This document shows, one piece after another, positions 47,945 to 61,648 of a stretch of 64,000 nt of DNA. A model generated the notes under the pieces. It was not told where the DNA came from. It saw nothing but the letters and a program-made list of their open reading frames with translations, and made no database searches. The position numbers and the translations under genes are program-made. Every line of letters begins with the position of its first letter. Position 1 is the first letter of the stretch. This DNA comes from Alphaproteobacteria bacterium (GTDB lineage: Bacteria > Pseudomonadota > Alphaproteobacteria > SP197): the NCBI GenBank assembly GCA_964291265.2, contig OZ219746.1, positions 271,510 through 335,509 on the forward strand, given 5' to 3'.

Positions 47945-48880
47945 ATGACGACACGTTTCTACACGCACGACGCGTGCCTTGCCCACGATACCGGTCCTCA
48001 TCATCCCGAGAGGGCGTCGCGGCTGCAGACGATCCTCGCGACCCTTGATGACGGGAGATTTGCGGCCCTTGAGCGCGTCGTTCCGCATCCGGCGACACCC
48101 GATCACATCGCTCTCATGCACCCGGCGCCCTGGGTCGAGGCGGTACTGGGCGCCATTCCTTCCGCCGGTCACGGCCATCTCGATGCCGATACGGTGGTCT
48201 CGAGCGGTTCAGGTCATGCCGCCCTCGTCGCCGCCGGCGCTCTTGTCGAGGCGGTCGATGCGGTGGTGGCCGGGGAGGTGTGCAACGCCTTCTGTGCCGT
48301 TCGACCGCCAGGCCATCATGCCGAACAGACCCGCGCCATGGGTTTCTGCCTCTTCAATTCCGTTGCCGTCGGTGCTGCCCACGCCCGTGCCGCCCACGCC
48401 CTCCACAGGGTCGCGGTCGTCGACTTCGATGTCCATCACGGCAACGGCACCCAGGCAATGTTCTGGGACGAGGAGGGAATGTTCTACGCCTCGACCCACC
48501 AGTATCCCCACTACCCTGGAACCGGCAGCGAAGAGGAGACCGGTTGCCGGGACAACATCGTGAACGCCCCGCTTCGCCCGGGGTCGGGGAGCGATGCCTT
48601 CCGTGCCGCCATCGAGAATCGCGTCATCCCGGCTCTTGACGCCTTCCGTCCCGAGATGGTGTTCATTTCTGCGGGCTTCGATGCCCACGAGCGTGATCCG
48701 CTGGCCAGCATCAATCTGGTGGAAGAGGACTTCGCCTGGGTGACGGAGCGCCTGCTCGAGGTCGGCCGCCTTCACGCGGGAGGGCGTGTTGTGTCGGTGC
48801 TGGAAGGCGGGTATGACCTTGATGCGCTGGGGGCGAGCGCCGCCCGGCACATCGAGACTCTCATGGAGGCAGGGGAATGA
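47945..48880 (+). CDS. histone deacetylase family protein (acetylpolyamine/AcuC-like amidohydrolase)
   Basis: RPPGHHA, DFDVHHGNGTQ and EGGY motifs. Confidence 0.9.
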   Translation: MTTRFYTHDACLAHDTGPHHPERASRLQTILATLDDGRFAALERVVPHPATPDHIALMHPAPWVEAVLGAIPSAGHGHLDADTVVSSGSGHAALVAAGALVEAVDAVVAGEVCNAFCAVRPPGHHAEQTRAMGFCLFNSVAVGAAHARAAHALHRVAVVDFDVHHGNGTQAMFWDEEGMFYASTHQYPHYPGTGSEEETGCRDNIVNAPLRPGSGSDAFRAAIENRVIPALDAFRPEMVFISAGFDAHERDPLASINLVEEDFAWVTERLLEVGRLHAGGRVVSVLEGGYDLDALGASAARHIETLMEAGE

Positions 48881-49134
48881 CAGGCGTGGATGCGGAAGAT
48901 GACATGGCCTCGATGAGTTTCGAGACCGCCATGGCGGAACTCGAGACCATTGTCGCGCGTCTCGAGAAGGGCGAGGCGAAGCTCGACGAGGCGATCGGCG
49001 ACTACGAGCGGGGCGCTCTCCTGCGGCGGCACTGTGAAGCCAGGCTGAGGGAAGCCCGGGAGAAGGTCGAGAAGATCCGTCTTGGAGCCGACGGCAGCAT
49101 CGCTGCCGAACCGGAGTCTGTCGGAGAGGAGTGA
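48877..49134 (+). CDS. xseB: exodeoxyribonuclease VII small subunit
   Basis: FETAMAELETIVARLEKGEAKLDEAIGDYERG is the XseB signature. It overlaps the HDAC stop by 4 nt. Confidence 0.9.
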   Translation: MTGVDAEDDMASMSFETAMAELETIVARLEKGEAKLDEAIGDYERGALLRRHCEARLREAREKVEKIRLGADGSIAAEPESVGEE

Positions 49135-49138
49135 GACA

Positions 49139-50017
49139 GTGACCGGCCTGCCGGACATGCTGGAAAGGGGCGCGCGGAGCGTCGACCGGACACTCGAGGA
49201 ACTCCTGCCCCGGGCCTCCGGACCGGAGGGCAGGTTCCACGAAGCCATGAGGTATGCCGTTTTCAACGGCGGCAAGCGCCTTCGCCCGGTGCTCGCGACA
49301 CTCTCTGCCGCGGTGTTCGGAATCACCGGGATCCGGGCCCTGAGGACGGCCGCCGCCGTCGAACTGATCCATTGTTATTCGCTGATTCACGACGATCTGC
49401 CCGCACTCGACAACGACGACCTGCGCCGCGGCCGGCCGACCTGTCATCGGGCCTTCGACGAAGCGACGGCGATCCTCGCTGGAGACGGATTGCAGTCGCT
49501 GGCCTTCGATGTCCTGGCGCATCCGGCGACGCACGAGGATGCGGAGGTGCGCATCGGCCTTGTTCGCGCCCTTGCCCATGCCTCCGGTTGCATCGGCATG
49601 ATAGCCGGTCAGGCGATCGACATGGCGGCCGAGCACATAACCCTCGATGTGCCCGGCATCAGGCGCCTGCAGGCTCTCAAGACCGGTGGGCTCTTCGTGT
49701 TCGGCGCCCGGGCCGGCGCCATCCTCGCCCGGGCCGATGAAGCTGCGATGATCGCCTTTGGCAGGGATCTCGGAACGGCCTTCCAGATCACCGACGACAT
49801 CCTCGATGTCGAGGGCGACGAGCAGAAAGTGGGCAAGGCAACCGGCAAGGATGCGGGCGCCGGCAAGGCGACCCTGGTCGAGGCCCTGGGACTGGAGGCG
49901 GCACGCCGCAGGGCGGTCGAACTCTCCGAACGGGCGATCGATGCCCTCGAGACGTTCGGGGAGACGGCCGACGGCCTGCGTGACATGGCGCGGTTTGCTG
50001 TTCATCGACAGGTCTGA
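49139..50017 (+). CDS. ispA: polyprenyl (farnesyl/geranylgeranyl) diphosphate synthase
   Basis: FARM LIHDDLPALDNDDLRRG and SARM ITDDILD. GTG at 49139 follows a GGAGAGGAG Shine-Dalgarno. Confidence 0.9.
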   Translation: MTGLPDMLERGARSVDRTLEELLPRASGPEGRFHEAMRYAVFNGGKRLRPVLATLSAAVFGITGIRALRTAAAVELIHCYSLIHDDLPALDNDDLRRGRPTCHRAFDEATAILAGDGLQSLAFDVLAHPATHEDAEVRIGLVRALAHASGCIGMIAGQAIDMAAEHITLDVPGIRRLQALKTGGLFVFGARAGAILARADEAAMIAFGRDLGTAFQITDDILDVEGDEQKVGKATGKDAGAGKATLVEALGLEAARRRAVELSERAIDALETFGETADGLRDMARFAVHRQV

Positions 50018-50026
50018 ATCTCCTGC

Positions 50027-50776
50027 ATGGCACGAACCGGCCGCCAGCGTGTCGATCAACTTCTGGTCCATCGGCAGCTGGCGCCGAGTCGGACACGGGC
50101 GCAGTCGCTGGTCATGGCGGGCGCAGTCTTCAGCGGCTCGAGACGGATCGACAAGCCCGGTGACCTGGTGTCTGTCAACAGCGTCATCGAGGTGCGCAGG
50201 CCGGACCATCCCTGGGTGTCGCGGGGAGGCCTCAAGCTCGAGCATGCGCTCGATCACTTCGCCATCGATGTCCAGGGTGTCCTCGCCCTCGACCTTGGAG
50301 CATCCACCGGCGGGTTCGTGGATGTCCTGCTCGCCCGACATGCGGCGCGCGTCTGGGCCGTCGATGTCGGCAAGGGACAGCTTGCCTGGCGACTGCGCCA
50401 GTCTCCCCGCGTCACCGTGTTGGAAGGCGTCAACGCTCGTGCCCTCGATGCGACACTCATCCCCGAACCGCCCGGCATCCTCGTCGCCGATCTCTCGTTC
50501 ATTTCGCTGATGACCGCGCTGCCGGCGTCCCTGTCGCTGGCGGCTCCCGCCTCTCACCTCATCGCTCTCATCAAGCCCCAGTTCGAAGCCGGCCGGGAAC
50601 GTGTCGGCAAGGGCGGCATCGTCCGCGATCCGGAGGTGCACCGGGAAGTCTGCACCAGCATCCGCACCTGGCTCGCCGACACCATGGGCTGGCACGCCCT
50701 CGGCATCGTCGAGAGTCCGATCACCGGCCGCAGCGGCAACCGCGAATTTCTCATCGCCGCCCGCAAGCCCGGTTGA
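50027..50776 (+). CDS. tlyA: TlyA family rRNA (cytidine-2'-O)-methyltransferase
   Basis: S4 domain RVDQLLVHRQLAPSRTRAQ and FtsJ-like LDLGASTGGF. Confidence 0.9.
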   Translation: MARTGRQRVDQLLVHRQLAPSRTRAQSLVMAGAVFSGSRRIDKPGDLVSVNSVIEVRRPDHPWVSRGGLKLEHALDHFAIDVQGVLALDLGASTGGFVDVLLARHAARVWAVDVGKGQLAWRLRQSPRVTVLEGVNARALDATLIPEPPGILVADLSFISLMTALPASLSLAAPASHLIALIKPQFEAGRERVGKGGIVRDPEVHREVCTSIRTWLADTMGWHALGIVESPITGRSGNREFLIAARKPG

Positions 50777-51125
50777 CCCCTCCCGGTGATCAGTTCCGCA
50801 TCGCAGTTCGGCCAGACATGCCAATGGGTGTCCGAGGGATGAGCCGCCCTCGGTGAAGGCGACACCGGCATGGGCCGCCATGCCAAGAGCGCCCGAACCG
50901 CCACCACCGATGTCGACAAGACCCTCGGAGACCCTCGGTCGCCTCCAGGCCATTGTCATTCAAGAACGTCGTGTCCTGGACGACAAAAGAAAAGCCCTGC
51001 ATACGAACGCGCGACGTCAAGAGACTCGAACGGAGTTCAGCGTGGGATCACCCTGAACAAGAGCCGAGTTCCGTTGACGGTCACGGGATCCATCCTCATA
51101 CTCGCGCAAACAGGAGTTTTCCGGG

Positions 51126-51602
51126 GTGCGGTTCAAGATCGCCATGCAAGAGCGTTTCGTGGACGACGTAGCGGCCCGAGATAAGTATTCGTCGTTCCAT
51201 CGTCATCTCCTTTCCATGCGTCCGGAACCGGAATGGCGGACAACCTTCGGCGCGCTTGAAGCGGTTCTCGGCAGCCGACTGCCTGTTTCGACACAACCGC
51301 GCCGGCCCTTGTGGTCCAACCCGAGGATGGACAATGATCATTCGCTGGCGCAGCAGGCGGCGAGATGGCGTTTGCAGAACGGGGGCATCAAAACGAGGAC
51401 GACTGTGCTCGCGTTCCAGGAGATGCCGCCGGAACCGAACACGGTGCCCGTGCGACAGCAGGGATTCTCTATCCGGGAGATTCTGCCTCCCTATGATCCC
51501 GGACCCTGGCCCGACGGCTTCACGATGAGCCGTGAGCAAATCTACGACGACATGGGGCGCTTGACCGGAGGACACGAGGACATGCCCGGTGACAACCACT
51601 GA
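51126..51602 (+). CDS. antitoxin-like partner of the downstream PIN toxin, atypical two-module protein
   Basis: 158 aa from GTG, with AGGAG 9 nt upstream. The stop lies 5 nt before the PIN gene. The N-terminal module is DKYSSFHRHLL...FGALEAVLGSRLPVS...LWSN. The C-terminal tail is PWPDGFTMSREQIYDDMGR. No RHH, AbrB or HTH motif recognised. Confidence 0.55.
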   Translation: MRFKIAMQERFVDDVAARDKYSSFHRHLLSMRPEPEWRTTFGALEAVLGSRLPVSTQPRRPLWSNPRMDNDHSLAQQAARWRLQNGGIKTRTTVLAFQEMPPEPNTVPVRQQGFSIREILPPYDPGPWPDGFTMSREQIYDDMGRLTGGHEDMPGDNH

Positions 51603-51607
51603 CCGGC

Positions 51608-52042
51608 ATGTTCGTTGACACCAATGTTCTCGTTGCGGCCCGTTTCGTGAACGCGCCTTGTCATGTGATTGCCTGCCGGTGCCTCGACCACGCCGGCAAT
51701 AGCGAAGAACCCCTGCTCATCAGCCGCCAGATTGTCCGCGAGTATCTCGTTGTGGTTACGCGCCAGCAAAGCTGGGCCAAACCGCTCGCCATAACCGACG
51801 CTTTGGATGACGTGACGAGGCTGGTATCCCCGTTCATCCTCCTGGAAGATGGTCCGAACGTCATGGAGATGCTGGCCGTGCTTTGCCGCGAGGTTCCCGT
51901 CGGGGGCAAGCAGGTCCATGACGCGAACATCGCGGCAACCATGCTGGCGTATGGTGAGCGACGACTCCTGACACTCAACATCAAGGACTTCCGGCGTTAC
52001 GGAAATCGAATCGAGCTGGTGGATCTGAAGGTGGCAGGGTGA
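51608..52042 (+). CDS. vapC: PIN domain toxin (VapC-like)
   Basis: MFVDTNVLVAA (Asp1), REYLVV (Glu), VHDANIAATM (Asp3) and LLTLNIKDFRRY (Asp4). Confidence 0.85.
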   Translation: MFVDTNVLVAARFVNAPCHVIACRCLDHAGNSEEPLLISRQIVREYLVVVTRQQSWAKPLAITDALDDVTRLVSPFILLEDGPNVMEMLAVLCREVPVGGKQVHDANIAATMLAYGERRLLTLNIKDFRRYGNRIELVDLKVAG

Positions 52043-52335
52043 GTGGGCGACCTAGTGAACCCGAACGAGTGCTCTGGCCAAGAATTAGGTCTGGAGCCGT
52101 TGCGCGTTGGAATCACCCACTGCCTCTGCGGGCATATGCATGACGGCCACGGATCCCAACCGACACAACGCCAGTCATGCGTGTGTTTCATCATCGATGG
52201 TTGATGATGCAGTGGTGGCTGGGTCGCTCGAACCGTCCTTTCGGACGGTCGATGAATATTGTTCCCAAACGCTTGACACCAACCCTCGGACCACCGACAG
52301 CTGAGAACGAGTGTCCGCCCGGAGAAAACGCCACA

Positions 52336-55300
52336 ATGACTGAACCTTCCCTGTCAGCTCTGGCCTCCGTTCTGCGACCGTTCACCACGATCGTTTTCCA
52401 GCATGTACGCCGTTTGTCCGCGGAGCGTCAGGCTGGTCAAGAGCCGTTAATCCGAACATCCACAGTCATGGATGGCTTGCTAAACAATACGCTGGACAGA
52501 ATTCGCAACGGACGCATTGACTCAAGCTGGTGGCAAAGCTTGCTGCATCGAGTCGGTCACCAGTACATTGCCCCCGATTTTCTGAAAAAGCCCGTGTTAC
52601 GGGGATGGCTTGCGGAGGAGTCCGTCGCTAAGGACCTTAAGATGATTGCGACGTGGCGTATAATGGACAGTGCTCAAGATGAGGCCGTCCCTCGCGATCG
52701 CCTCGCCCAAAGCTACTCGCACCGAACCGGAGAAGTCCCCTACCTGGCTGCCAGACCTATCGATGTGGTGGTAGCCGTCCTGGTTGCGGGCTACTTTGGA
52801 GCGAGTCGATCCGATGATCGAGCGATTACGGGCATCATGCAAACCGGATTTTTGCAGATCAGTGAACGCCTAGATCAGCTAGGCCAAGCCTTACCGCTGA
52901 CCACCGATCCAGTCACCTGCAAAGCGCATACGCAAGATGCAGAGAAGCGGCTCGCACAAATCCTCTCTCTTCGCGGCATCAATCCTGCAAGAGCGCGACA
53001 CGACACTCAAGAACTGCTAAAGCGACTTGACTCTGGTGACCTGTCCGCCGCCGCAGCAAAGATCAAGCATGACGTTCGTTACTGGACGGCAAGGTTGAGT
53101 GCGAGTGATGTCAAAACACTCGAGATTGCCAAAGAGCTCAGGGTGCAGATCAACAACGATGACCCGGACAGGGATCTGTCCATCATCGATGCACTGATAT
53201 GCGAGACGCAGGACAACCCCGATGAAGCCGTCCGACTTCTTCGCGACCGTGACGACCCTGATTCTCGAGCCGTTTTTTTCGGCCTGCTTGCCCGATCACG
53301 TGACGCCGGCGCCGCACTGGCCGAATTTGCGGAAAGAATGGTTACCGCACATGCCGAGTTCTTTACCTCTATTGGATGGAGGAACTGGGCCCATTGCATG
53401 ATCAAGGTGGGTCGATGGATGGAAGCAGCGGAGGTTCTCGTTCGGATCGGCGACAAGAAGTCCGATTCCCCGATGTTGGCTCTTATTGAAGGAATCATCA
53501 ACGCGCAGTTGCTGCTTCCCACGGAGTTGCGAAACGCTACTGGAGACCTTCCGATATCTGCCGGCATCAGACCAATGCAGGGAGAGGATGCAGAGAACAT
53601 TCATGCGCGAGCAGCGGCCTGCCTTGAAATGGCTCAGGCTGGATTTGGGGAGCTTGAAGCCAGCGCTCTCGAGCGATATGTGGCTTTCTGGCGTCAATGG
53701 CTCCGGTTGATGGATCCGAAGGATGAGAACGCAAGAGTTGCTCGGGAGCAAGTTCGACAAGATCTCGACCGTGACGAACCGGACATCAGGGCGGTACCGC
53801 TCGCATGGGCATTTGAAATTTCATTCAATCGGGAGCCGATACGACGCTACCTGTCTGGTCGAGAGAAACTCGGTGGGTTGGACGACGATGAGCTTCGGGC
53901 TCAGTGCCTTCTGTTGTTGATTGACATGGACTCCGGAGCCTTGAGTGGCCGGAACTTCCTGCGTTATCTGAATGCACATCGGAAGAGGCTTGATCGCGTG
54001 ATGTCGAACGGCCTCCTCAAGTCCGCGAATATCAGGGCTCTGGTAGTGGACAATCAGACGGCGAGAGCTCGCAAGCGTTTGGAGGAGATGCGCGGTGACC
54101 TTGACGACGAGGGAGTAAGGCGTCTTTCTGCGATGATCGATTCTCACGCGGGTCTCGACCCTCGACAGAAGCTTGAAAGGGCATACCAAGAGACTGGAAG
54201 CATCACAGATCTTCGCAATCTTGTTGAGTGTGTGAGGAATGCGGATGACAACGAGGCTCTCCTACCTCTTCTCCGGGAGTTGGTGGGGCGACACCGGACC
54301 GTCGCGAATGTGACGGACTTGGCGGTTTGCCTGAGCGGTCGACCTTTCTCGGATCACCGTCAGATAGTCGAACTTCTCGATTCCAACGAGGCCTACGCGG
54401 ATCTTGTCGAACAAAGCGTCGACCTCAAGGTTGTAAAGGCGTGGGCGCTCTTTCACTCCGGTCAGTTGTCGAAAGCCAAGGTACATAGCGACGAGATCTT
54501 GAACAATCGGTCTTCAGTGAACATGAACTTGTCTGAAGCGAGCGTGATTGGCCTCGACATCAACATCGCATTGGCATCCGGTGACTGGGAGCGTCTCCCG
54601 GCAATCGTCGAGCGTGAATGGCCAAGGCGAGATGAGCACACCGCCAATACGCTACTTGGTCTGGCCCAGATTTCACCTCGTCAAGGCAAGAACCCAGACC
54701 GGGCGCTGATGCTTGCCAGGCTGGCCGCAGAAAAGGCCCCCGATGACCCGCACGTCCTGGCAGCGTCGTATTGGTTGCATTTCCAGCATGGTCGAGACGG
54801 AGACGCTGATCGGGATTGGTTGTCACGCGCCTTGGAGCTCTCGTCGGACGAAGATGGGCCCGTGTGGTCCGTTGATCTGCAAACAGTTGCTACCAACTGG
54901 ATGCCCACGCGTCGGGAACGACTGGCCGAAATCAGGAAGCAATGGCTGGCTGGTGAGATCCCGACTGGATTGGCTGCGTCTCTATGGGACGTCTCCCTGA
55001 CACGCCTCCTTGTACAAATTCCCGAGACCAACGCAGATGAGCCCGATCGACGCCTGACGGAAGTCGTGCCGGTGGGTCTTGGCAAGCGGGCGGCCGTGGA
55101 ACTGCAAACGGACTGGGCTATTGGGCTGGATATCACCTCCATTCTCGTCTTGCACTACCTCGGTTTTTTGGAGTTTGTTTTCTGTGTGTTCAAGCGTGTC
55201 AAGCTCGCTTCTGACGTGATGCTGAGCCTGTTCCGGGAGCAGGACAGAGTCCGCTTCCATCAGCCATCGCGCATCAGAGACGGACAGCAGGTGCAGAATT

Positions 55301-58300
55301 TGTGCAACCTGCAGCGACTTCGCGTTGCTGATGGTATTGAGGCCCCACCCACAGACGCTGTCGACGAGCTAGGGAGGGAGTTGGCTGAATTATTGCACGC
55401 AGCAAGACAAGGCGGCGGCAAGGTGGTTTGCGTCTTTCCAATCCACCAACCCAAGTCGATGATGGAGAAGGAAGCCGACACCACGGCGTGGAACGACCTC
55501 CTCGTTTCAGTGTTCGATCTGTGCAGGTTGCTGCATATGCGGGGCGATATCGATGCCGACACACACGAGCGGGTTCAACTGTTTCTTCGAACCCAAGGCC
55601 AGGCAGCACGAGGGGATGCGGAAACGTCGATTCTGGACGGAGCGATCTATCTGGACGATCTCGCTCTATCCTACCTTCAGAGTGCCAAGGTTCTGGACCA
55701 GGTTGCTACGTCCAACCTGGATCTCCGCATCCATTCCAGGGTTCTCGATCGCATGGAGGCACTCGTCAGAGCGGGTCAATCGGGTGAAGACCTTGCAGTG
55801 AAGATAGACGAGATTCGTCATGTCCTACGCAGCGCAGTGGAGTCCGGAAGAGCATCCTATCTGCCTCGCAGTGTGGATCAGGAGGAGTCGGTTCCGAATC
55901 GCGACGATCCGTTCGCCGCCACCCGATCGCTGTTGGCAGCCGCTGCTGAATGTGACGCCCTCTGCGTCGATGACCGCTTCATCAACAGCAGTGAAAGCAT
56001 CACAGTCACTGAGAAAGCGGAACGCACCATCCCCATTGTCTGTGTACTTGACGTATTGGACTGCCTTGTCGAGCAAGCTCATCTCCGTCCGGTGCACCTT
56101 TGGACGGCACGGCACAAGCTGCGGTCTGGTGGATTTGTCTTCATTCCTTTGGAGGTGGACGAATTGGTCCATTGGCTGAAGACAGCCCCTGTGGAGAACG
56201 GACTGTGGATCGAGAGCGCTGAGCTTCGTGCCATTCGCCAGTCCATGGCACAGACAAGTTCTGTGGGCTTGTTCAACCCCGATGAGACTTTTGTATTGTC
56301 CGATGAGGTAACCCAAACGAGCGTTTGCGCCCTTCGGTCATTGTGGAGAAATCAGTGCTTGGCCGTGGAGACCGTCGTCACGATGTCGACTTGGGTCTGG
56401 CGACACTTGATTGCCAACGCACCTGGTGGGCACGGAGATGACGAAGAGAAAAGACGCAAGACTTGGACTCGAGAGTCAGTGCTACGGCGGGTCAGTGCGG
56501 TTCTTCTCCCACCAGGCATTGAATCGTCCGATCGCCGAGACAGCTTTGCCCGGTGGGTGGACGAGTCGGTTCTTCAACCTTTCCGGCCAGCAAATGTAAA
56601 TCTGATCGACGATGCCCTGACTCTCATAGCTGATAGCATTCCGGATGAAGATTGTGAAGACTCAGTGTTTGTTAATTTTTTTCTTTCTCACTTGCCGGAT
56701 TCTTGCCGACAGTATCTGCTGAAGAAGTATCCTGATCGAGCCCGTCGGTGGGGCTTCGAGACACGAACAGTGTTCGGTCTCGAAGCTGGGATCAAGATCC
56801 TTGATAAGGAGCTGTTTGCGGCTGCAAGGCATGTTTTGTCGGGGAAGGGGGAACGATCGATACGATCCATCATGGGCGACGATATATTGGTTGATCTCGA
56901 TCCGGGAGACTTGACCGTGGTCCTGGTGAACCCCGACACCGGGCCAGGAAACAGGGAGAAAATTCCGGATCTCTCGGTTTTTTCTCCTGATTCACAAACA
57001 CGGGTAGCGGCACTGGGTTCCATGCTTGATCGTCTTGGGCCGACGGCACCTGATTTCGGACGCCTTCTTGCCGACCTGGAATTGGGCGAGCCGGACGATT
57101 CTGAATTGACGGATGTCTTTCGTGAGGCTGCCGATGGTGTGGCAGCCTTGCAAGGTTCGTTGCTCAGGAAGATCTGTCCTGGTCAACCTCTCGACGTCGT
57201 TGACGTGGTTCCGGAAGACCTCGCTTATTACGAAAAATTCGTGGGGCCGCAGCCCGAATCGAGGGATCCCGATCAGTACATTTCCCGTACTCTGATCCCC
57301 TATCGCAGAGCACTTCTGGATCGAGACCTGAGCCGCGGCCTTGATATCTGCTGTGTTGGGGCCTTGCGCGAAGATCTTTGTCCTGGACAGTGGACGTTCC
57401 ACATCGACGACAATGAGATGTGGGATGCTCTCAACGCCTGCGATGCTGACAAGACGCCGGTTTCACTGCTGGGCGCTCTCGACGTGGCGCTGTATCGGCA
57501 GCACGACGATCGATTTCGGGACTATGCTGCACGAGCGATCATCAAGCTCTGCAGCGATGGGTTCGATCCGCAGCAGAGCACCGAATTCTACAAGCTTTTT
57601 TGGATATTTACATTTCTCACGTTCAATCGCGTAAGCCTCATCGAAAACGGTTCGAAGCAGCCTGGTTTCTGGAGACGGATGTGTGCGTGGATGCAGGCTC
57701 AGTTCATTGTCCGTGCCTTGTCAAGAGAATCTGTTTCAGTCGACTTGGACAAGCTGGAGGGTTGGGCCATGTCAAACATGGCGCTCGTGGGGGCTTATGC
57801 CGAGCTTGTCAGCGCTCGGGAAGAGCCGATGCTGTTGTTTGCGGAACGCCTGCCGCCCAGCGATTTACGTTGTGAAGTACTTGGTCGCCTTGTGGGGCTG
57901 AGGTCGCGCCACGCGAGCGAGGGAAGAAGCATTCCCCAGTCGGAAACAATCGACCAGGCACTGGAACGGGCACAGGAGAGCGGGAATTGGCTGAAGTGCT
58001 TCTTTCCCGGGCCGCTGGAAGGCCACCGACGTCCTACTGAACCTGCATCGGAGCAGCTTGTGGGGACGTTGAAGGAATCGGTGCCGGATGGCTCCCTTCC
58101 TGCATCGTGGCACTTCATGGCGAACCTTTCGCATCTGCATGCGTTGGGCGAATGCGAACTTGGTGTCGCACGTGAGGCAGTGGTTCGAGTAGGCGACGGT
58201 TCCGACGAAGGGGAAATGAGGAATACCCTCCTCTCCTTGGAAGCCGCGAGTATGGTAGCGAAAACAAGCAGGGACACGTTGCTGGCGGACGCGATCGCAG

Positions 58301-58587
58301 ATGCGGTTGCAAGCATCGCCAGGAGGGTTTCGAACGAGAACGACATCTGGCTTATTCTTGTAATCTGCTTGCAGGCTGCAGCTGCCTTCGAAGAACACGA
58401 TGCGTGGTTTGATTGGCTGGAAGAAAGACTGGCGAGAATTGCAAGCTCTCTTCCTGGTCCCCCCAACCGATCCGTTCCGATGTTCCTGGAGCATCTCGAC
58501 GCGATGGAAACGATCCTGCCCATCGGCTCCTGGTTTCATCGCCGGGCGAGATCCATAGCATCGATGGGTACTGTGCGCCGGCCGTAG
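52336..58587 (+). CDS. giant orphan protein (~2,083 aa): helical/TPR-like arrays plus a central split PIN-like signature; function unknown
   Basis: Single uninterrupted ORF (track 52177..58587). The preferred start is ATG at 52336, with GGAGAA 9 nt upstream. GC is clearly lower than in the flanks. No P-loop, signal peptide or other familiar catalytic motif was seen apart from the PIN-like residues around 55.1-56.0 kb. Confidence 0.8.
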   Translation: MTEPSLSALASVLRPFTTIVFQHVRRLSAERQAGQEPLIRTSTVMDGLLNNTLDRIRNGRIDSSWWQSLLHRVGHQYIAPDFLKKPVLRGWLAEESVAKDLKMIATWRIMDSAQDEAVPRDRLAQSYSHRTGEVPYLAARPIDVVVAVLVAGYFGASRSDDRAITGIMQTGFLQISERLDQLGQALPLTTDPVTCKAHTQDAEKRLAQILSLRGINPARARHDTQELLKRLDSGDLSAAAAKIKHDVRYWTARLSASDVKTLEIAKELRVQINNDDPDRDLSIIDALICETQDNPDEAVRLLRDRDDPDSRAVFFGLLARSRDAGAALAEFAERMVTAHAEFFTSIGWRNWAHCMIKVGRWMEAAEVLVRIGDKKSDSPMLALIEGIINAQLLLPTELRNATGDLPISAGIRPMQGEDAENIHARAAACLEMAQAGFGELEASALERYVAFWRQWLRLMDPKDENARVAREQVRQDLDRDEPDIRAVPLAWAFEISFNREPIRRYLSGREKLGGLDDDELRAQCLLLLIDMDSGALSGRNFLRYLNAHRKRLDRVMSNGLLKSANIRALVVDNQTARARKRLEEMRGDLDDEGVRRLSAMIDSHAGLDPRQKLERAYQETGSITDLRNLVECVRNADDNEALLPLLRELVGRHRTVANVTDLAVCLSGRPFSDHRQIVELLDSNEAYADLVEQSVDLKVVKAWALFHSGQLSKAKVHSDEILNNRSSVNMNLSEASVIGLDINIALASGDWERLPAIVEREWPRRDEHTANTLLGLAQISPRQGKNPDRALMLARLAAEKAPDDPHVLAASYWLHFQHGRDGDADRDWLSRALELSSDEDGPVWSVDLQTVATNWMPTRRERLAEIRKQWLAGEIPTGLAASLWDVSLTRLLVQIPETNADEPDRRLTEVVPVGLGKRAAVELQTDWAIGLDITSILVLHYLGFLEFVFCVFKRVKLASDVMLSLFREQDRVRFHQPSRIRDGQQVQNLCNLQRLRVADGIEAPPTDAVDELGRELAELLHAARQGGGKVVCVFPIHQPKSMMEKEADTTAWNDLLVSVFDLCRLLHMRGDIDADTHERVQLFLRTQGQAARGDAETSILDGAIYLDDLALSYLQSAKVLDQVATSNLDLRIHSRVLDRMEALVRAGQSGEDLAVKIDEIRHVLRSAVESGRASYLPRSVDQEESVPNRDDPFAATRSLLAAAAECDALCVDDRFINSSESITVTEKAERTIPIVCVLDVLDCLVEQAHLRPVHLWTARHKLRSGGFVFIPLEVDELVHWLKTAPVENGLWIESAELRAIRQSMAQTSSVGLFNPDETFVLSDEVTQTSVCALRSLWRNQCLAVETVVTMSTWVWRHLIANAPGGHGDDEEKRRKTWTRESVLRRVSAVLLPPGIESSDRRDSFARWVDESVLQPFRPANVNLIDDALTLIADSIPDEDCEDSVFVNFFLSHLPDSCRQYLLKKYPDRARRWGFETRTVFGLEAGIKILDKELFAAARHVLSGKGERSIRSIMGDDILVDLDPGDLTVVLVNPDTGPGNREKIPDLSVFSPDSQTRVAALGSMLDRLGPTAPDFGRLLADLELGEPDDSELTDVFREAADGVAALQGSLLRKICPGQPLDVVDVVPEDLAYYEKFVGPQPESRDPDQYISRTLIPYRRALLDRDLSRGLDICCVGALREDLCPGQWTFHIDDNEMWDALNACDADKTPVSLLGALDVALYRQHDDRFRDYAARAIIKLCSDGFDPQQSTEFYKLFWIFTFLTFNRVSLIENGSKQPGFWRRMCAWMQAQFIVRALSRESVSVDLDKLEGWAMSNMALVGAYAELVSAREEPMLLFAERLPPSDLRCEVLGRLVGLRSRHASEGRSIPQSETIDQALERAQESGNWLKCFFPGPLEGHRRPTEPASEQLVGTLKESVPDGSLPASWHFMANLSHLHALGECELGVAREAVVRVGDGSDEGEMRNTLLSLEAASMVAKTSRDTLLADAIADAVASIARRVSNENDIWLILVICLQAAAAFEEHDAWFDWLEERLARIASSLPGPPNRSVPMFLEHLDAMETILPIGSWFHRRARSIASMGTVRRP

Positions 58588-59933: not shown

Positions 59934-60770
59934 TCAGTCGGAGCGCCAGCCCCACATGGCGCCGCCCTTCATGGCTCTCAAGGGCACGCGGCCGTGGTCG
60001 CTCGGATAATGCCCGAGCAAGCCGTCGTGCACATTGTAGCCCATGAGTTGCTGAAGGTGCTCCGGCAAGGCGGCGGCGGTTTCGCGGGGAACGGAAAGGA
60101 AGTGATTGACCTCCTGGCGCAGCCAGCCGAGGCAGTAGGTGTTGATGAGTCCGGCACGGGGTCGGCGGTCCCGGTTGGCTCCGCCACCGTGCCATGCTGA
60201 TCCGAGATAGAAGAGCGCCGATCCCTTCGGCATGTCGGCCGACACCACCCCATCATCAGGCCCGGGCGATCGCGACGGCGGCCAGCGATGGCTCTTCGGA
60301 ACGAGCCGGGTGGCCCCGTTGACGTCGGTGAACGCCTCAAGGGCCCACATGACCGAGACCTGCCACTCGACGCCGGGGACCTGCACGGGGTAGATCGTGT
60401 CGTCGCGGTGGAGAACCTGCCCGGTTTCGCCTGGATGGATCTCGATGGCCGTGCAACTGCCGATGAGATAGGAGGTGCAGTGGTCAAGGAGAATGGCGTC
60501 GAGCACACGCATCATGCCGCGGTGACCGATCATGCCGGCGGATGCCGGCGAGATGTCGAGAACCGAATTGACGCGCAGGGTGGTGTAGCCGTTGAAATCG
60601 CTCACGGTGGACCGGCCCACCCGGTCAAAGGGCTCCCTGAGGTCGCTTCGCACCTCGTCGGCCATGGCATCGTCGACATAGTGCTCGACGATGGCCGCAC
60701 CATCGCGCCGGATCGCTCCAACGATGTCGGGAACCGGTGCATCGCTCCTGAACCGTTCGATCCCCGGCAT
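59934..60770 (-). CDS. phytanoyl-CoA dioxygenase (PhyH) family oxygenase
   Basis: 278 aa. LHRDD...H(x)GGAN pattern of Fe(II)/2OG PhyH enzymes. Confidence 0.7.
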   Translation of the reverse strand: MPGIERFRSDAPVPDIVGAIRRDGAAIVEHYVDDAMADEVRSDLREPFDRVGRSTVSDFNGYTTLRVNSVLDISPASAGMIGHRGMMRVLDAILLDHCTSYLIGSCTAIEIHPGETGQVLHRDDTIYPVQVPGVEWQVSVMWALEAFTDVNGATRLVPKSHRWPPSRSPGPDDGVVSADMPKGSALFYLGSAWHGGGANRDRRPRAGLINTYCLGWLRQEVNHFLSVPRETAAALPEHLQQLMGYNVHDGLLGHYPSDHGRVPLRAMKGGAMWGWRSD

Positions 60771-60785
60771 GTGCCTCCCGTCACG

Positions 60786-61415
60786 TCATCGGCGAGGATA
60801 CACAATGACGGAAAGAAACCTGACCGGCAACCGAATCAGTGTCTCGGGCCCGTGCGGGGCATCGGCATCGAAGAAGAGGGAATCGCCGACCTCCATGCGG
60901 TAGCTGCTTCCGGCATGGCGGTAGACCATGGCGCCCTCGACGACATAGAGGAACTCCTGGCCGTCGTGCTGGAACAGGGGGAAAACCTCGGATTCGTGGG
61001 TCAGCGTGATCATGTAGGGTTCGACGGCGACTTCCTTGTGAACACCGTGTCCGAGCAGGGCGTACTGATGGCCGGCGCGCGTCCCGCGGCGTTCGATCTT
61101 GAGGCCCTCTCCCGCCCTGACATGACTGGCATCGCGCTGTTCCTCGAATCTCTGGAAGAGTGTGTTGAACGGAACGTTGAGGGCTCCGACCAGGCGCTGC
61201 AGGGTGCTCAGGGAAGGCGATGTATGGCCGTTCTCGATCTTCGAGAGCATGCCGGAGGATACTCCGGCCTGAGCCGCAAGTTCCGTCACGGTCATGTCGA
61301 GTCGACGCCGGTGGCGGCGGACCTGGTTGCCGATGGCAGCCTCGAGGTCACGGTCTCCCCGGGCCATGGCGTGGGGATCCTGGTCGAGGACCGCAGGAAG
61401 CTCATGGTCCGGCAT
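60786..61415 (-). CDS. XRE-family HTH transcriptional regulator with a C-terminal cupin domain
   Basis: HTH LDMTVTELAAQAGVSSGMLSKIENG, followed by a cupin-like beta-barrel region. Confidence 0.8.
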   Translation of the reverse strand: MPDHELPAVLDQDPHAMARGDRDLEAAIGNQVRRHRRRLDMTVTELAAQAGVSSGMLSKIENGHTSPSLSTLQRLVGALNVPFNTLFQRFEEQRDASHVRAGEGLKIERRGTRAGHQYALLGHGVHKEVAVEPYMITLTHESEVFPLFQHDGQEFLYVVEGAMVYRHAGSSYRMEVGDSLFFDADAPHGPETLIRLPVRFLSVIVYPRR

Positions 61416-61426
61416 GGAATCGGATC

Positions 61427-61648
61427 CTACATCGTGTCGTCATCGAGGTGCCCGGCTCCGAGGATCACCGCCACGGGCCCCCTGCCGTCATGATGGACCA
61501 GGAAGTGGACGGCCATGCCGGGAGCAACGGCGCCCAGTCTGGCGCGGGTTGTTCCGTCGACATCGAACACCATGTCGCCACCGCCGTCGACCGGGCGCAC
61601 GAAGCCGTAGGACCGTTCCGGCCTGAGCCAGACGATGTGACCATTCAT
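61427..61648 (-). CDS. cold-shock-domain-like small protein
   Basis: GHIVWLRPERSYGFVRPVDGGGDMVF resembles the CSD pattern G.VKWFN..KGFGFI..DGG.DVFVH, but is degenerate. Confidence 0.5.
   Translation of the reverse strand: MNGHIVWLRPERSYGFVRPVDGGGDMVFDVDGTTRARLGAVAPGMAVHFLVHHDGRGPVAVILGAGHLDDDTM

Follow-up and report, generated by a model that had tools for sequence, protein, structure and literature searches.

Conflict systems of the TPR-GreA/B-C-PIN (TGP) type were predicted by Kaur, Iyer, Burroughs & Aravind in 2021 (PMC8195603). According to that prediction the Gre-C domain binds the coiled-coil of beta-prime where the secondary channel of RNA polymerase opens, and the PIN domain cleaves the transcript, whereas an N-terminal effector serves as back-up; SIR2, PNPase and restriction endonuclease (REase) domains are among the TGP effectors (PMC8195603). 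One TGP protein, Agp, belongs to the Bab/Agp abortive infection (Abi) system of E. coli ECOR25, where it is required for defence against T5 and activates Bab; the defence is lost when its GreA/B-C domain is mutated (bioRxiv 10.1101/2024.11.07.622273). Here, we compare these systems with a giant gene on a 64,000-nucleotide stretch of DNA from Alphaproteobacteria bacterium (assembly GCA_964291265.2, contig OZ219746.1, positions 271,510 to 335,509 of the forward strand). The whole of this stretch is referred to as the window, and nucleotide coordinates are positions in it unless a locus name precedes them.

The gene encodes a protein of 2,083 amino acids (aa), the parts of which are listed below. 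We regard it as somewhat probable that the gene belongs to a horizontally acquired three-gene cassette, that it is the fused form of a two-gene (A+B) TGP variant, and that the system is an RNA-polymerase-docking, RNA-cleaving defence. Structural statements refer to two AlphaFold2 models made with 83-sequence alignments, one of aa 900-2083 (predicted local distance difference test, pLDDT, 85.4) and one of aa 1-1100 (pLDDT 80.1).

52336..58587, + strand: giant gene for 2,083 aa, coordinates including the stop codon; A and B of the HTH/double-PIN/permuted-GreAB-C system in one reading frame
52336..52806, + strand: N-terminal helical-bundle domain, aa 1-157, family-specific (AlphaFold2 model)
52909..54840, + strand: TPR-type alpha-superhelix, aa 192-835 (AlphaFold2 model and Foldseek)
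54877..55089, + strand: helix-turn-helix (HTH) domain, aa 848-918 (Pfam PF24407 and modelled helices)
55108..55623, + strand: PIN-like unit 1, aa 925-1096 (modelled topology and alignment to unit 2)
55633..56145, + strand: PIN-like unit 2, aa 1100-1270 (sub-cut-off match to PF20698 and conserved acidic residues)
56161..56745, + strand: helical spacer, aa 1276-1470 (long helices in the model), with the A/B junction near aa 1440-1450
56770..56961, + strand: small beta-rich domain, aa 1479-1542 (AlphaFold2 model; homology to Permuted_GreAB-C by way of relatives)
56983..58584, + strand: C-terminal alpha-solenoid, aa 1550-2083, about 530 aa (AlphaFold2 model, pLDDT mostly 85-96)

The family to which the window protein belongs likewise has TPR repeats as its scaffold and, by prediction, the other two core modules of TGP, namely a domain related to GreA/B-C and a divergent PIN resembling PF20698. 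As in TGP, an NTPase is lacking, the N-terminal slot is variable (SIR2, PNPase, REase/Mrr), conserved neighbours are few and the distribution is patchy. The window protein is, however, about twice the size of a TGP protein (2,083 versus about 1,100 aa), and the TGP order of effector, TPR, Gre and PIN is not the order seen here, which is N-terminal domain, TPR, HTH, PIN, PIN, spacer, Gre-like domain and solenoid. Also unlike TGP, the PIN is duplicated, an HTH domain (PF24407) is added, the Gre-like domain would be of the permuted PF24388 type, a solenoid of 530 aa is present, and in many bacteria the system is split into a two-gene operon. The N-terminal domain of the window protein differs from those of TGP in being a family-specific helical bundle and not a recognised effector or effector-associated domain (EAD), and neither a BASS amyloid motif nor a Bell-type partner was seen for the window system.

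The Pfam description of an HTH upstream of a double PIN suits the protein, as PF24407 scores above cut-off and two PIN-like units come after it, and the association with a Permuted_GreAB-C module follows by homology to B proteins that bear PF24388. The names of these Pfam families show that the curators had already seen the domains. Since the domains are in Pfam and the logic was predicted in 2021, the family is a variant of the TGP class and not categorically new. Literature searches on double-PIN/HTH, permuted-Gre and TPR-GreAB-C-PIN proteins turned up no paper that describes this variant. Compared with the STAND/Avs systems, the window protein is alike in its large repeat scaffold, its nuclease-like module and the N-terminal effector swapping of its family, but it has no P-loop NTPase switch and no PADLOC match.

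The region aa 192-835 was modelled as an all-alpha superhelix with pLDDT mostly above 85. A Foldseek search of the PDB with this superhelix gave 140 matches at E<=1e-3, and all of the 50 matches listed were TPR or TPR-like (HAT) structures with probability 1.0, with Ctr9, Ski3, APC/C subunits, TTC7 and Naa15 among those named. The Pfam matches in the same region, to TPR_14 and TPR_19, are weak. Downstream of it, PF24407 (HTH_upst_double_PIN, HTH_upstream_double_PIN) matches aa 854-918 with an E-value of 1e-8 and 35.8 bits against a cut-off of 27; the helices were modelled at aa 848-871, 877-883 and 888-893, and the family is carried by 119 of 120 listed homologues.

The HTH domain is followed by two PIN-like units. 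Unit 1 has an alternating beta-alpha topology in the model, and the two units align over 155 columns (hhalign E 1e-3), which argues for a tandem duplication. Conservation was counted in 103 sequences. For unit 1 the counts are D932 in 103, E968 in 99, D1054 in 96 and D1061 in 97 sequences, and an invariant C1032..P1035 after strand 3 stands in place of the third acidic residue of PIN domains. For unit 2 they are D1107 in 100, H1133 in 102, D1212 in 103, D1213 in 100 and D1239 in 103 sequences, the position equivalent to the PIN Glu being D or N (70/25). Unit 2 is, from these residues, likely the catalytic unit. PF20698, in full the PIN domain associated with the TPR-GreAB-C-PIN system, is recorded for 23 of 120 homologues in precomputed annotation, and it matches the second PIN unit of the superfamily member P0263 above cut-off (33.5 bits). 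Another superfamily member, P0161 (2,467 aa), carries an extra canonical PF20698 PIN (75 bits, aa 987-1125) upstream of a core match that starts at aa 1275, which suggests that further variants with three PIN units may exist.

The small beta-rich domain is modelled with the topology beta-beta-alpha-beta-beta-beta-beta. PF24388 (Permuted_GreAB-C) is matched by 13 of 29 diverse homologous segments (best E 8e-8), and P0081 falls just short of the cut-off of 27 with 26.8 bits. By this homology the domain would be a permuted GreA/B-C domain and not a canonical one. The solenoid behind it carries the strongly conserved motifs GLDICCxGALRDDLxPGQW, PGFWxRMCAWMQ, FPGPLEG and SWFHxRA, and corresponds in colinear order to the last two-thirds of the B proteins described below, PGPLEG included.

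The N-terminal domain consists of 7-8 modelled helices (pLDDT mostly 74-93), behind which aa 158-189 form a disordered linker. No known effector family was matched by it in the Pfam scan or in a profile search, the latter giving nothing beyond short pieces of family members, with no further architecture among them. In relatives, other domains occupy this place. A module of about 380 aa bearing SIR2_2 stands in for aa 1-186 of the query in P0102, and in three superfamily members the TPR-HTH-PIN core is preceded by another domain, which is PNP_UDP_1 for P0263 and P0269 and Mrr_cat for P0285. We regard this place as a variable slot for an effector or adaptor. A hydrophobic helix at aa 135-156 has a Kyte-Doolittle value of 1.66, which is borderline for a membrane helix, and is modelled within the helical bundle; this value and the packing rule out a role as membrane anchor.

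The longest open reading frame (ORF) for the giant gene is 52177-58587. The ATG at 52336 (MTEPSLSALA...) has GGAGAA 7 nt 5' of it, and the N-terminus read from this codon agrees with the homologue consensus MxxPxLSxLA; as both agree, 52336 was taken as the start and 2,083 aa as the product. A public copy of the protein, P0001, has 2,136 aa and begins at the ATG at 52177, thus including 52177-52335 as an extra part. Since homologue N-termini and the GGAGAA site indicate 52336, the deposited annotation is probably over-extended at its start, by 53 codons. The GC content of the giant gene is 56.1%, with 60% at third codon positions (GC3), and its flanks have about 64% GC. For cysNC, cysD, M24 peptidase and nusA, which are host genes of the window, the values are 64-67% GC and 80-83% GC3, so the composition of the giant gene is foreign to its genome.

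Searches of the giant protein for an NTPase were negative, both with the Walker A expression '[AG]xxxxGK[ST]' over the whole protein and with the NTPase families in the Pfam scan. PADLOC-DB v2 gave 0 families at E<=1, and the NCBIfam search gave no match. A match to Tako8 in the PDB searches was a repeat artefact.

An earlier note on this DNA, made from the sequence before any database search, had described one uninterrupted 6.25-kb ORF of foreign composition with TPR-like helical repeats and no P-loop, unlike STAND/Avs proteins with their NTPase switch, and these observations hold, as does its description of a repeat scaffold with a nuclease-like core and without NTPase. The PADLOC check that it proposed agrees with a system outside that collection. 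Its central PIN-like region is present and is in fact two tandem units, and acidic residues of both are conserved among homologues. The helical module that it placed at the N-terminus is modelled, although the helix it called very hydrophobic is only borderline so. Its C-terminal 800 aa without motif turned out to hold both the PF24388-homologous domain and the conserved alpha-solenoid.

The two-gene form was found in relatives of the giant protein. A tblastn search of plasmids brought up remote homologues from Agrobacterium fabrum, Methylophaga thalassica and two cyanobacteria; these plasmids are large, and three are conjugative. On the Agrobacterium fabrum plasmid pAtN33_94 and the Methylophaga thalassica plasmid, an A gene is followed by an overlapping B gene of about 630 aa. 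The A genes at these two loci encode 1,366 or 1,529 aa covering query aa ~214-1437, with 25-28% identity to query aa 214-1304 and about 20-28% for A and B overall. B is colinear with query aa ~1440-2083 (E 2e-13 and 1e-12), the FPGPLEG motif included. In the family, A proteins range from about 1,240 to 1,530 aa and B proteins are about 640 aa long. A comprises the variable N-terminal slot, the TPR superhelix, the HTH domain and the two PIN-like units, and B the permuted GreA/B-C-like domain and the alpha-solenoid.

A search with B gave 44 stand-alone proteins, nearly all of about 640 aa and most with PF24388, some of which are named 'GreAB-C-like domain-containing protein' in UniRef. The same arrangement, an A gene bearing PF24407 that overlaps the B gene behind it, is seen in Pigmentiphaga aceris and Microbulbifer halophilus. 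The B protein of Pigmentiphaga aceris (FXN63_13780) and the Agrobacterium fabrum pair (G6L76_RS22795/RS22800) are annotated as hypothetical protein. Alignments of B to the query begin at aa ~1437-1450, and split A proteins stop at about position 595 of the core profile, which was built from aa 845-1550 (704 positions). The sampled sequences comprised 142 fused and 54 split-A proteins, and for 192 of these 196 the closest sequence in an alignment of the core was of the same class, fused or split. The A+B operons of cultured bacteria thus have the same Pfam families as the window protein and are homologous along its full length, but their genes are split and overlapping and lack an upstream pair of the window type described below. 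Judged by these alignments, the window protein is a fusion of the two-gene A+B system, and the fusion/split (Rosetta-stone) relationship suggests that A and B act as one complex. Upstream of the Agrobacterium fabrum operon lie an integrase and a VapBC pair that is unrelated to the pair of the window. At the Methylophaga thalassica locus (L052:1335-6921), four hypothetical genes in a row (267, 954, 459 and 185 aa) immediately precede A+B, with a WYL-domain gene on the opposite strand ahead of them, and this stretch may be another defence operon.

Among 5.8 billion proteins searched, 131 matched the giant protein, about 100 of them along its full length (about 2,020-2,090 aa; 35-72% identity), and conservation among the homologues is even along the entire length. 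Among 185,579 genomes, one per species, 50 loci with the family were found, all in metagenome-assembled genomes and with 29-62% identity to the window protein; they belong to Gammaproteobacteria, Acidobacteriota, Binatia, Spirochaetia, Desulfobacterota, Nitrospirota and Entotheonellaceae. The core profile matches 1,916 cluster representatives (50% identity clusters), 915 of them at E<=1e-30.

In the window and its closest relatives the giant gene is preceded by a conserved leader region and a pair of small genes, which make up the remainder of the cassette.

51126..51602, + strand: 158-aa protein, first gene of the pair (conserved ORF, start codon approximate)
51608..52042, + strand: VapC-like PIN protein, 144 aa, second gene of the pair (Pfam PF01850)
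52043..52335, + strand: conserved 290-nt leader/promoter region (nucleotide alignment with L057, L058 and L059)

The VapC-like protein matches the PIN family PF01850 with 27.1 bits (cut-off 23.6) and the VapC family TIGR00028 with 51.5 bits, below the cut-off of 73.6, and its sequence has the canonical D-E-D-D pattern. The 158-aa gene ends 5 nt ahead of it. Its product had no match in Pfam, NCBIfam, PADLOC or the PDB, antitoxin families included, and carries a C-terminal motif, PP.D.G.WP..[FY]T.SR.QIYDD.GRLTG, that is invariant in the cassettes; it may be an antitoxin or regulator of the VapC-like protein. As in VapBC modules, the second gene encodes a PIN protein with a Pfam match above cut-off and a small first gene lies just upstream. 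Unlike in VapBC, the first gene is about twice the size of a typical VapB and lacks an antitoxin family match, and the pair is, unlike free-standing modules, co-inherited with the giant gene. A profile comparison between the N-terminal domain of the giant protein and the 158-aa protein, made for a pairing of the EAD type, found none.

All six closest loci (L001-L003 and L057-L059) have the pair just ahead of the giant gene, which makes 7/7 with the window. Across these six cassettes the identity is 61-83% for the PIN protein, 50-73% for the 158-aa protein and 55-72% for the giant protein. The seven cassettes of the clade occupy different chromosomal sites: the one in L059 is flanked by two integrases and IS66 and has a type ISP enzyme close by, the one in L058 lies among TIR, resolvase, transposase and integrase genes, and the one in L057 between msrB and ilvBHC. 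The 290-nt spacer is conserved in the window, L057, L058 and L059 about as well as coding DNA, and could be a promoter, operator or leader. An Rfam scan of the cassette including this spacer gave no match, and a promoter/terminator scan was at chance level, with one promoter-like match upstream of the pair (51074-51102). No direct repeats flank the island and no tRNA gene is present in the window. For the window, a single-gene system is too simple a description, and the pair may either contribute to the function of the system or be an addiction module that travels along with it.

Other clades have no upstream pair of the window type. In 14 of their loci, from several phyla, a convergent pair of overlapping genes (about 202 aa, then about 154 aa) directly follows the giant gene, on the minus strand (L006:17730-18790, L007:16285-17348, L008:16368-17433, L020:16228-17297 and L025:16241-17304, and also L010, L016, L019, L023, L031, L035, L043, L048 and L049). 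Representatives of both proteins had no match in Pfam, NCBIfam, PADLOC or the PDB, and the pair is absent from the window. Toxin-antitoxin (TA)-like pairs of four unrelated families were seen immediately upstream of family members in unrelated bacteria, namely HigB/HTH (HigBA) at L051:9243-9841, VapBC at L053:3587-4245, UPF0175/DUF3368 (PIN-like) at L055:2287-3058 and the 158-aa/VapC-like pair of the window (51126-52042), a recurrence that may be beyond chance.

Two further ORFs of the window lie near the cassette. A predicted ORF of 916 aa at 48209-50959 on the minus strand, between cysD and the cassette (GC 66.6%; GC3 70%, compared with about 80% in the core genes around it), had no match in Pfam, NCBIfam or PADLOC and is missing beside the cassette in related loci. 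Another of 401 aa at 60288-61493 on the plus strand, between M24 peptidase and rimP/nusA (GC3 69%), had no family match.

Clustering of neighbouring genes found no neighbour common to all 50 loci. Defence genes among the neighbours include DISARM DrmD (5 loci), type I restriction-modification (R-M) systems (4) and type III methylases (3), as well as MADS, Mrr, a BsuBI-type enzyme, type ISP R-M, CAP12-type TIR, HipA and BilA. Mobile genes are represented by integrases, a resolvase, IS66, and DDE and rve transposases. A role in conflict or defence is the best reading, because the spread is patchy, the GC content foreign and synteny not common to the loci, because defence and mobile genes are found as neighbours, and because N-terminal effectors are swapped. 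This context agrees with the role that the earlier note proposed, and the map of taxonomic spread that it suggested turned out patchy over six or more phyla. The upstream toxin-antitoxin pair that it saw indeed consists of a small ORF and, behind it, a gene for a PIN protein of the VapC type. It also took the protein for an orphan single-gene system of unrecognised type; the matches, loci and core-matching cluster representatives counted above, the two-gene operons elsewhere, the pair always linked to the gene in the window clade, and the matches of the protein or its relatives to the families PF24407, PF20698 and PF24388, which were built for this architecture, speak otherwise.

By analogy with TGP, the TPR and solenoid scaffolds would hold the protein inactive until a trigger is provided by infection. 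The Gre-like domain, which belongs to the B part, would then dock the protein at the rim of the secondary channel of RNA polymerase, while the HTH domain would contact nucleic acid. Unit 2, with D1107, D1212/D1213 and D1239, would cleave RNA. Unit 1 lacks one acidic position and for this reason more probably helps to bind RNA. The N-terminal helical domain would be a second-line effector or an adaptor.

Several results weigh against this reading. The PF20698 match of the window protein itself (aa 1105-1218, E 2e-5, 25.2 bits) is below the cut-off of 27.8, and the window segment aa 1470-1550 gave no PF24388 match when compared with Pfam. The PDB was searched by sequence and by profile with the entire protein, with the Gre-like segment and with the core of 704 positions; nothing meaningful came up and the Gre-like segment matched no solved structure, so that the PIN and Gre assignments are predictions. 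Comparison by hhalign of units 1 and 2 with the neighbouring canonical VapC PIN family gave no similarity and therefore no independent backing for the PIN fold. Foldseek with the whole C-terminal model gave generic HEAT/ARM solenoids only (TM <0.2), a query that is silent on PIN and Gre. Ordinary metabolic genes are frequent as neighbours, for which reason the association with defence islands is qualitative. We infer the defence function of the family from context and analogy, and for Agp a direct role as nuclease is unestablished and the PIN mutant is unstable (bioRxiv 10.1101/2024.11.07.622273). Phage GenBank records and IMG/VR contained no homologues; this fits a cellular or island-borne gene and is uninformative on the target.

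It is quite unlikely that the PIN-like units are non-catalytic modules for binding RNA or protein and the giant protein a sensor or scaffold, with the output given by the N-terminal domain, the VapC-like toxin or oligomerisation, in the way that Agp activates Bab. The missing acidic position of unit 1, the D or N at the Glu-equivalent position of unit 2, the divergence of both units from any solved PIN by sequence and from the adjacent VapC by profile, the lack of independent nuclease activity found for Agp, together with its unstable PIN mutant, and the strict linkage of the VapC-like pair in the window clade would all suit such modules. The near-invariance of D932, D1107, D1212, D1213 and D1239 over 103 sequences of 35-72% identity is hard to explain in that way, however, and most clades have no VapC-like pair. 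A rather unlikely alternative, though less so than the former, is that the cassette serves the maintenance of a mobile element or competition between elements, stabilising its island or plasmid or excluding rival plasmids or integrative and conjugative elements (ICEs), with the Gre-like domain disrupting transcription of a competitor. The location of relatives on large plasmids, three of them conjugative, the integrases, resolvases and IS elements adjoining relatives, the upstream TA-like pairs of four families (VapC-like, VapBC in L053, HigBA in L051, UPF0175/DUF3368 in L055) and the lack of phage copies all fit this, whereas the N-terminal SIR2, PNPase and Mrr domains with R-M, DISARM and MADS neighbours are the usual signature of anti-phage islands, and around several loci mobile genes are missing over 8-10 kb. 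This explanation overlaps with an anti-phage function, and the two are not mutually exclusive.

A vertically inherited housekeeping factor for transcription or RNA quality control is most improbable. Cleavage of backtracked transcripts would suit a protein with Gre-like and PIN units, and some loci are flanked solely by metabolic genes. On the other hand, the family was found at only 50 loci among the 185,579 species genomes, over six or more phyla and with no synteny common to them, which is not the pattern of the core gene that the earlier note had considered as the alternative. Its composition is foreign, close relatives lie at different insertion sites, the N-terminal toxin-type domains vary, and copies occur on plasmids. 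The fused TGP variant acting in defence is the reading that we retain. A wider form of it, which we put forward tentatively as possible, is that the family, fused or as A+B operon, represents a widespread NTPase-free class of immune systems that dock at RNA polymerase and destroy the transcripts of invaders at their source, the VapC-like pair having been recruited in the window clade as a functional third component and not as a hitch-hiking addiction module, e.g. as a back-up Abi effector set free once the giant protein is triggered.

The architecture with a duplicated PIN, an HTH domain and a separate or fused Gre-solenoid subunit is new. Because the family is absent from PADLOC and NCBIfam, it is missed by defence annotation. 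Tractable cultured carriers are available in Pigmentiphaga aceris, Agrobacterium fabrum, Microbulbifer halophilus, Roseateles violae and Comamonas koreensis. If the proposed function is correct, the family would extend the TGP idea of an immunity that reads hijacked transcription by means of a Gre-like docking domain.

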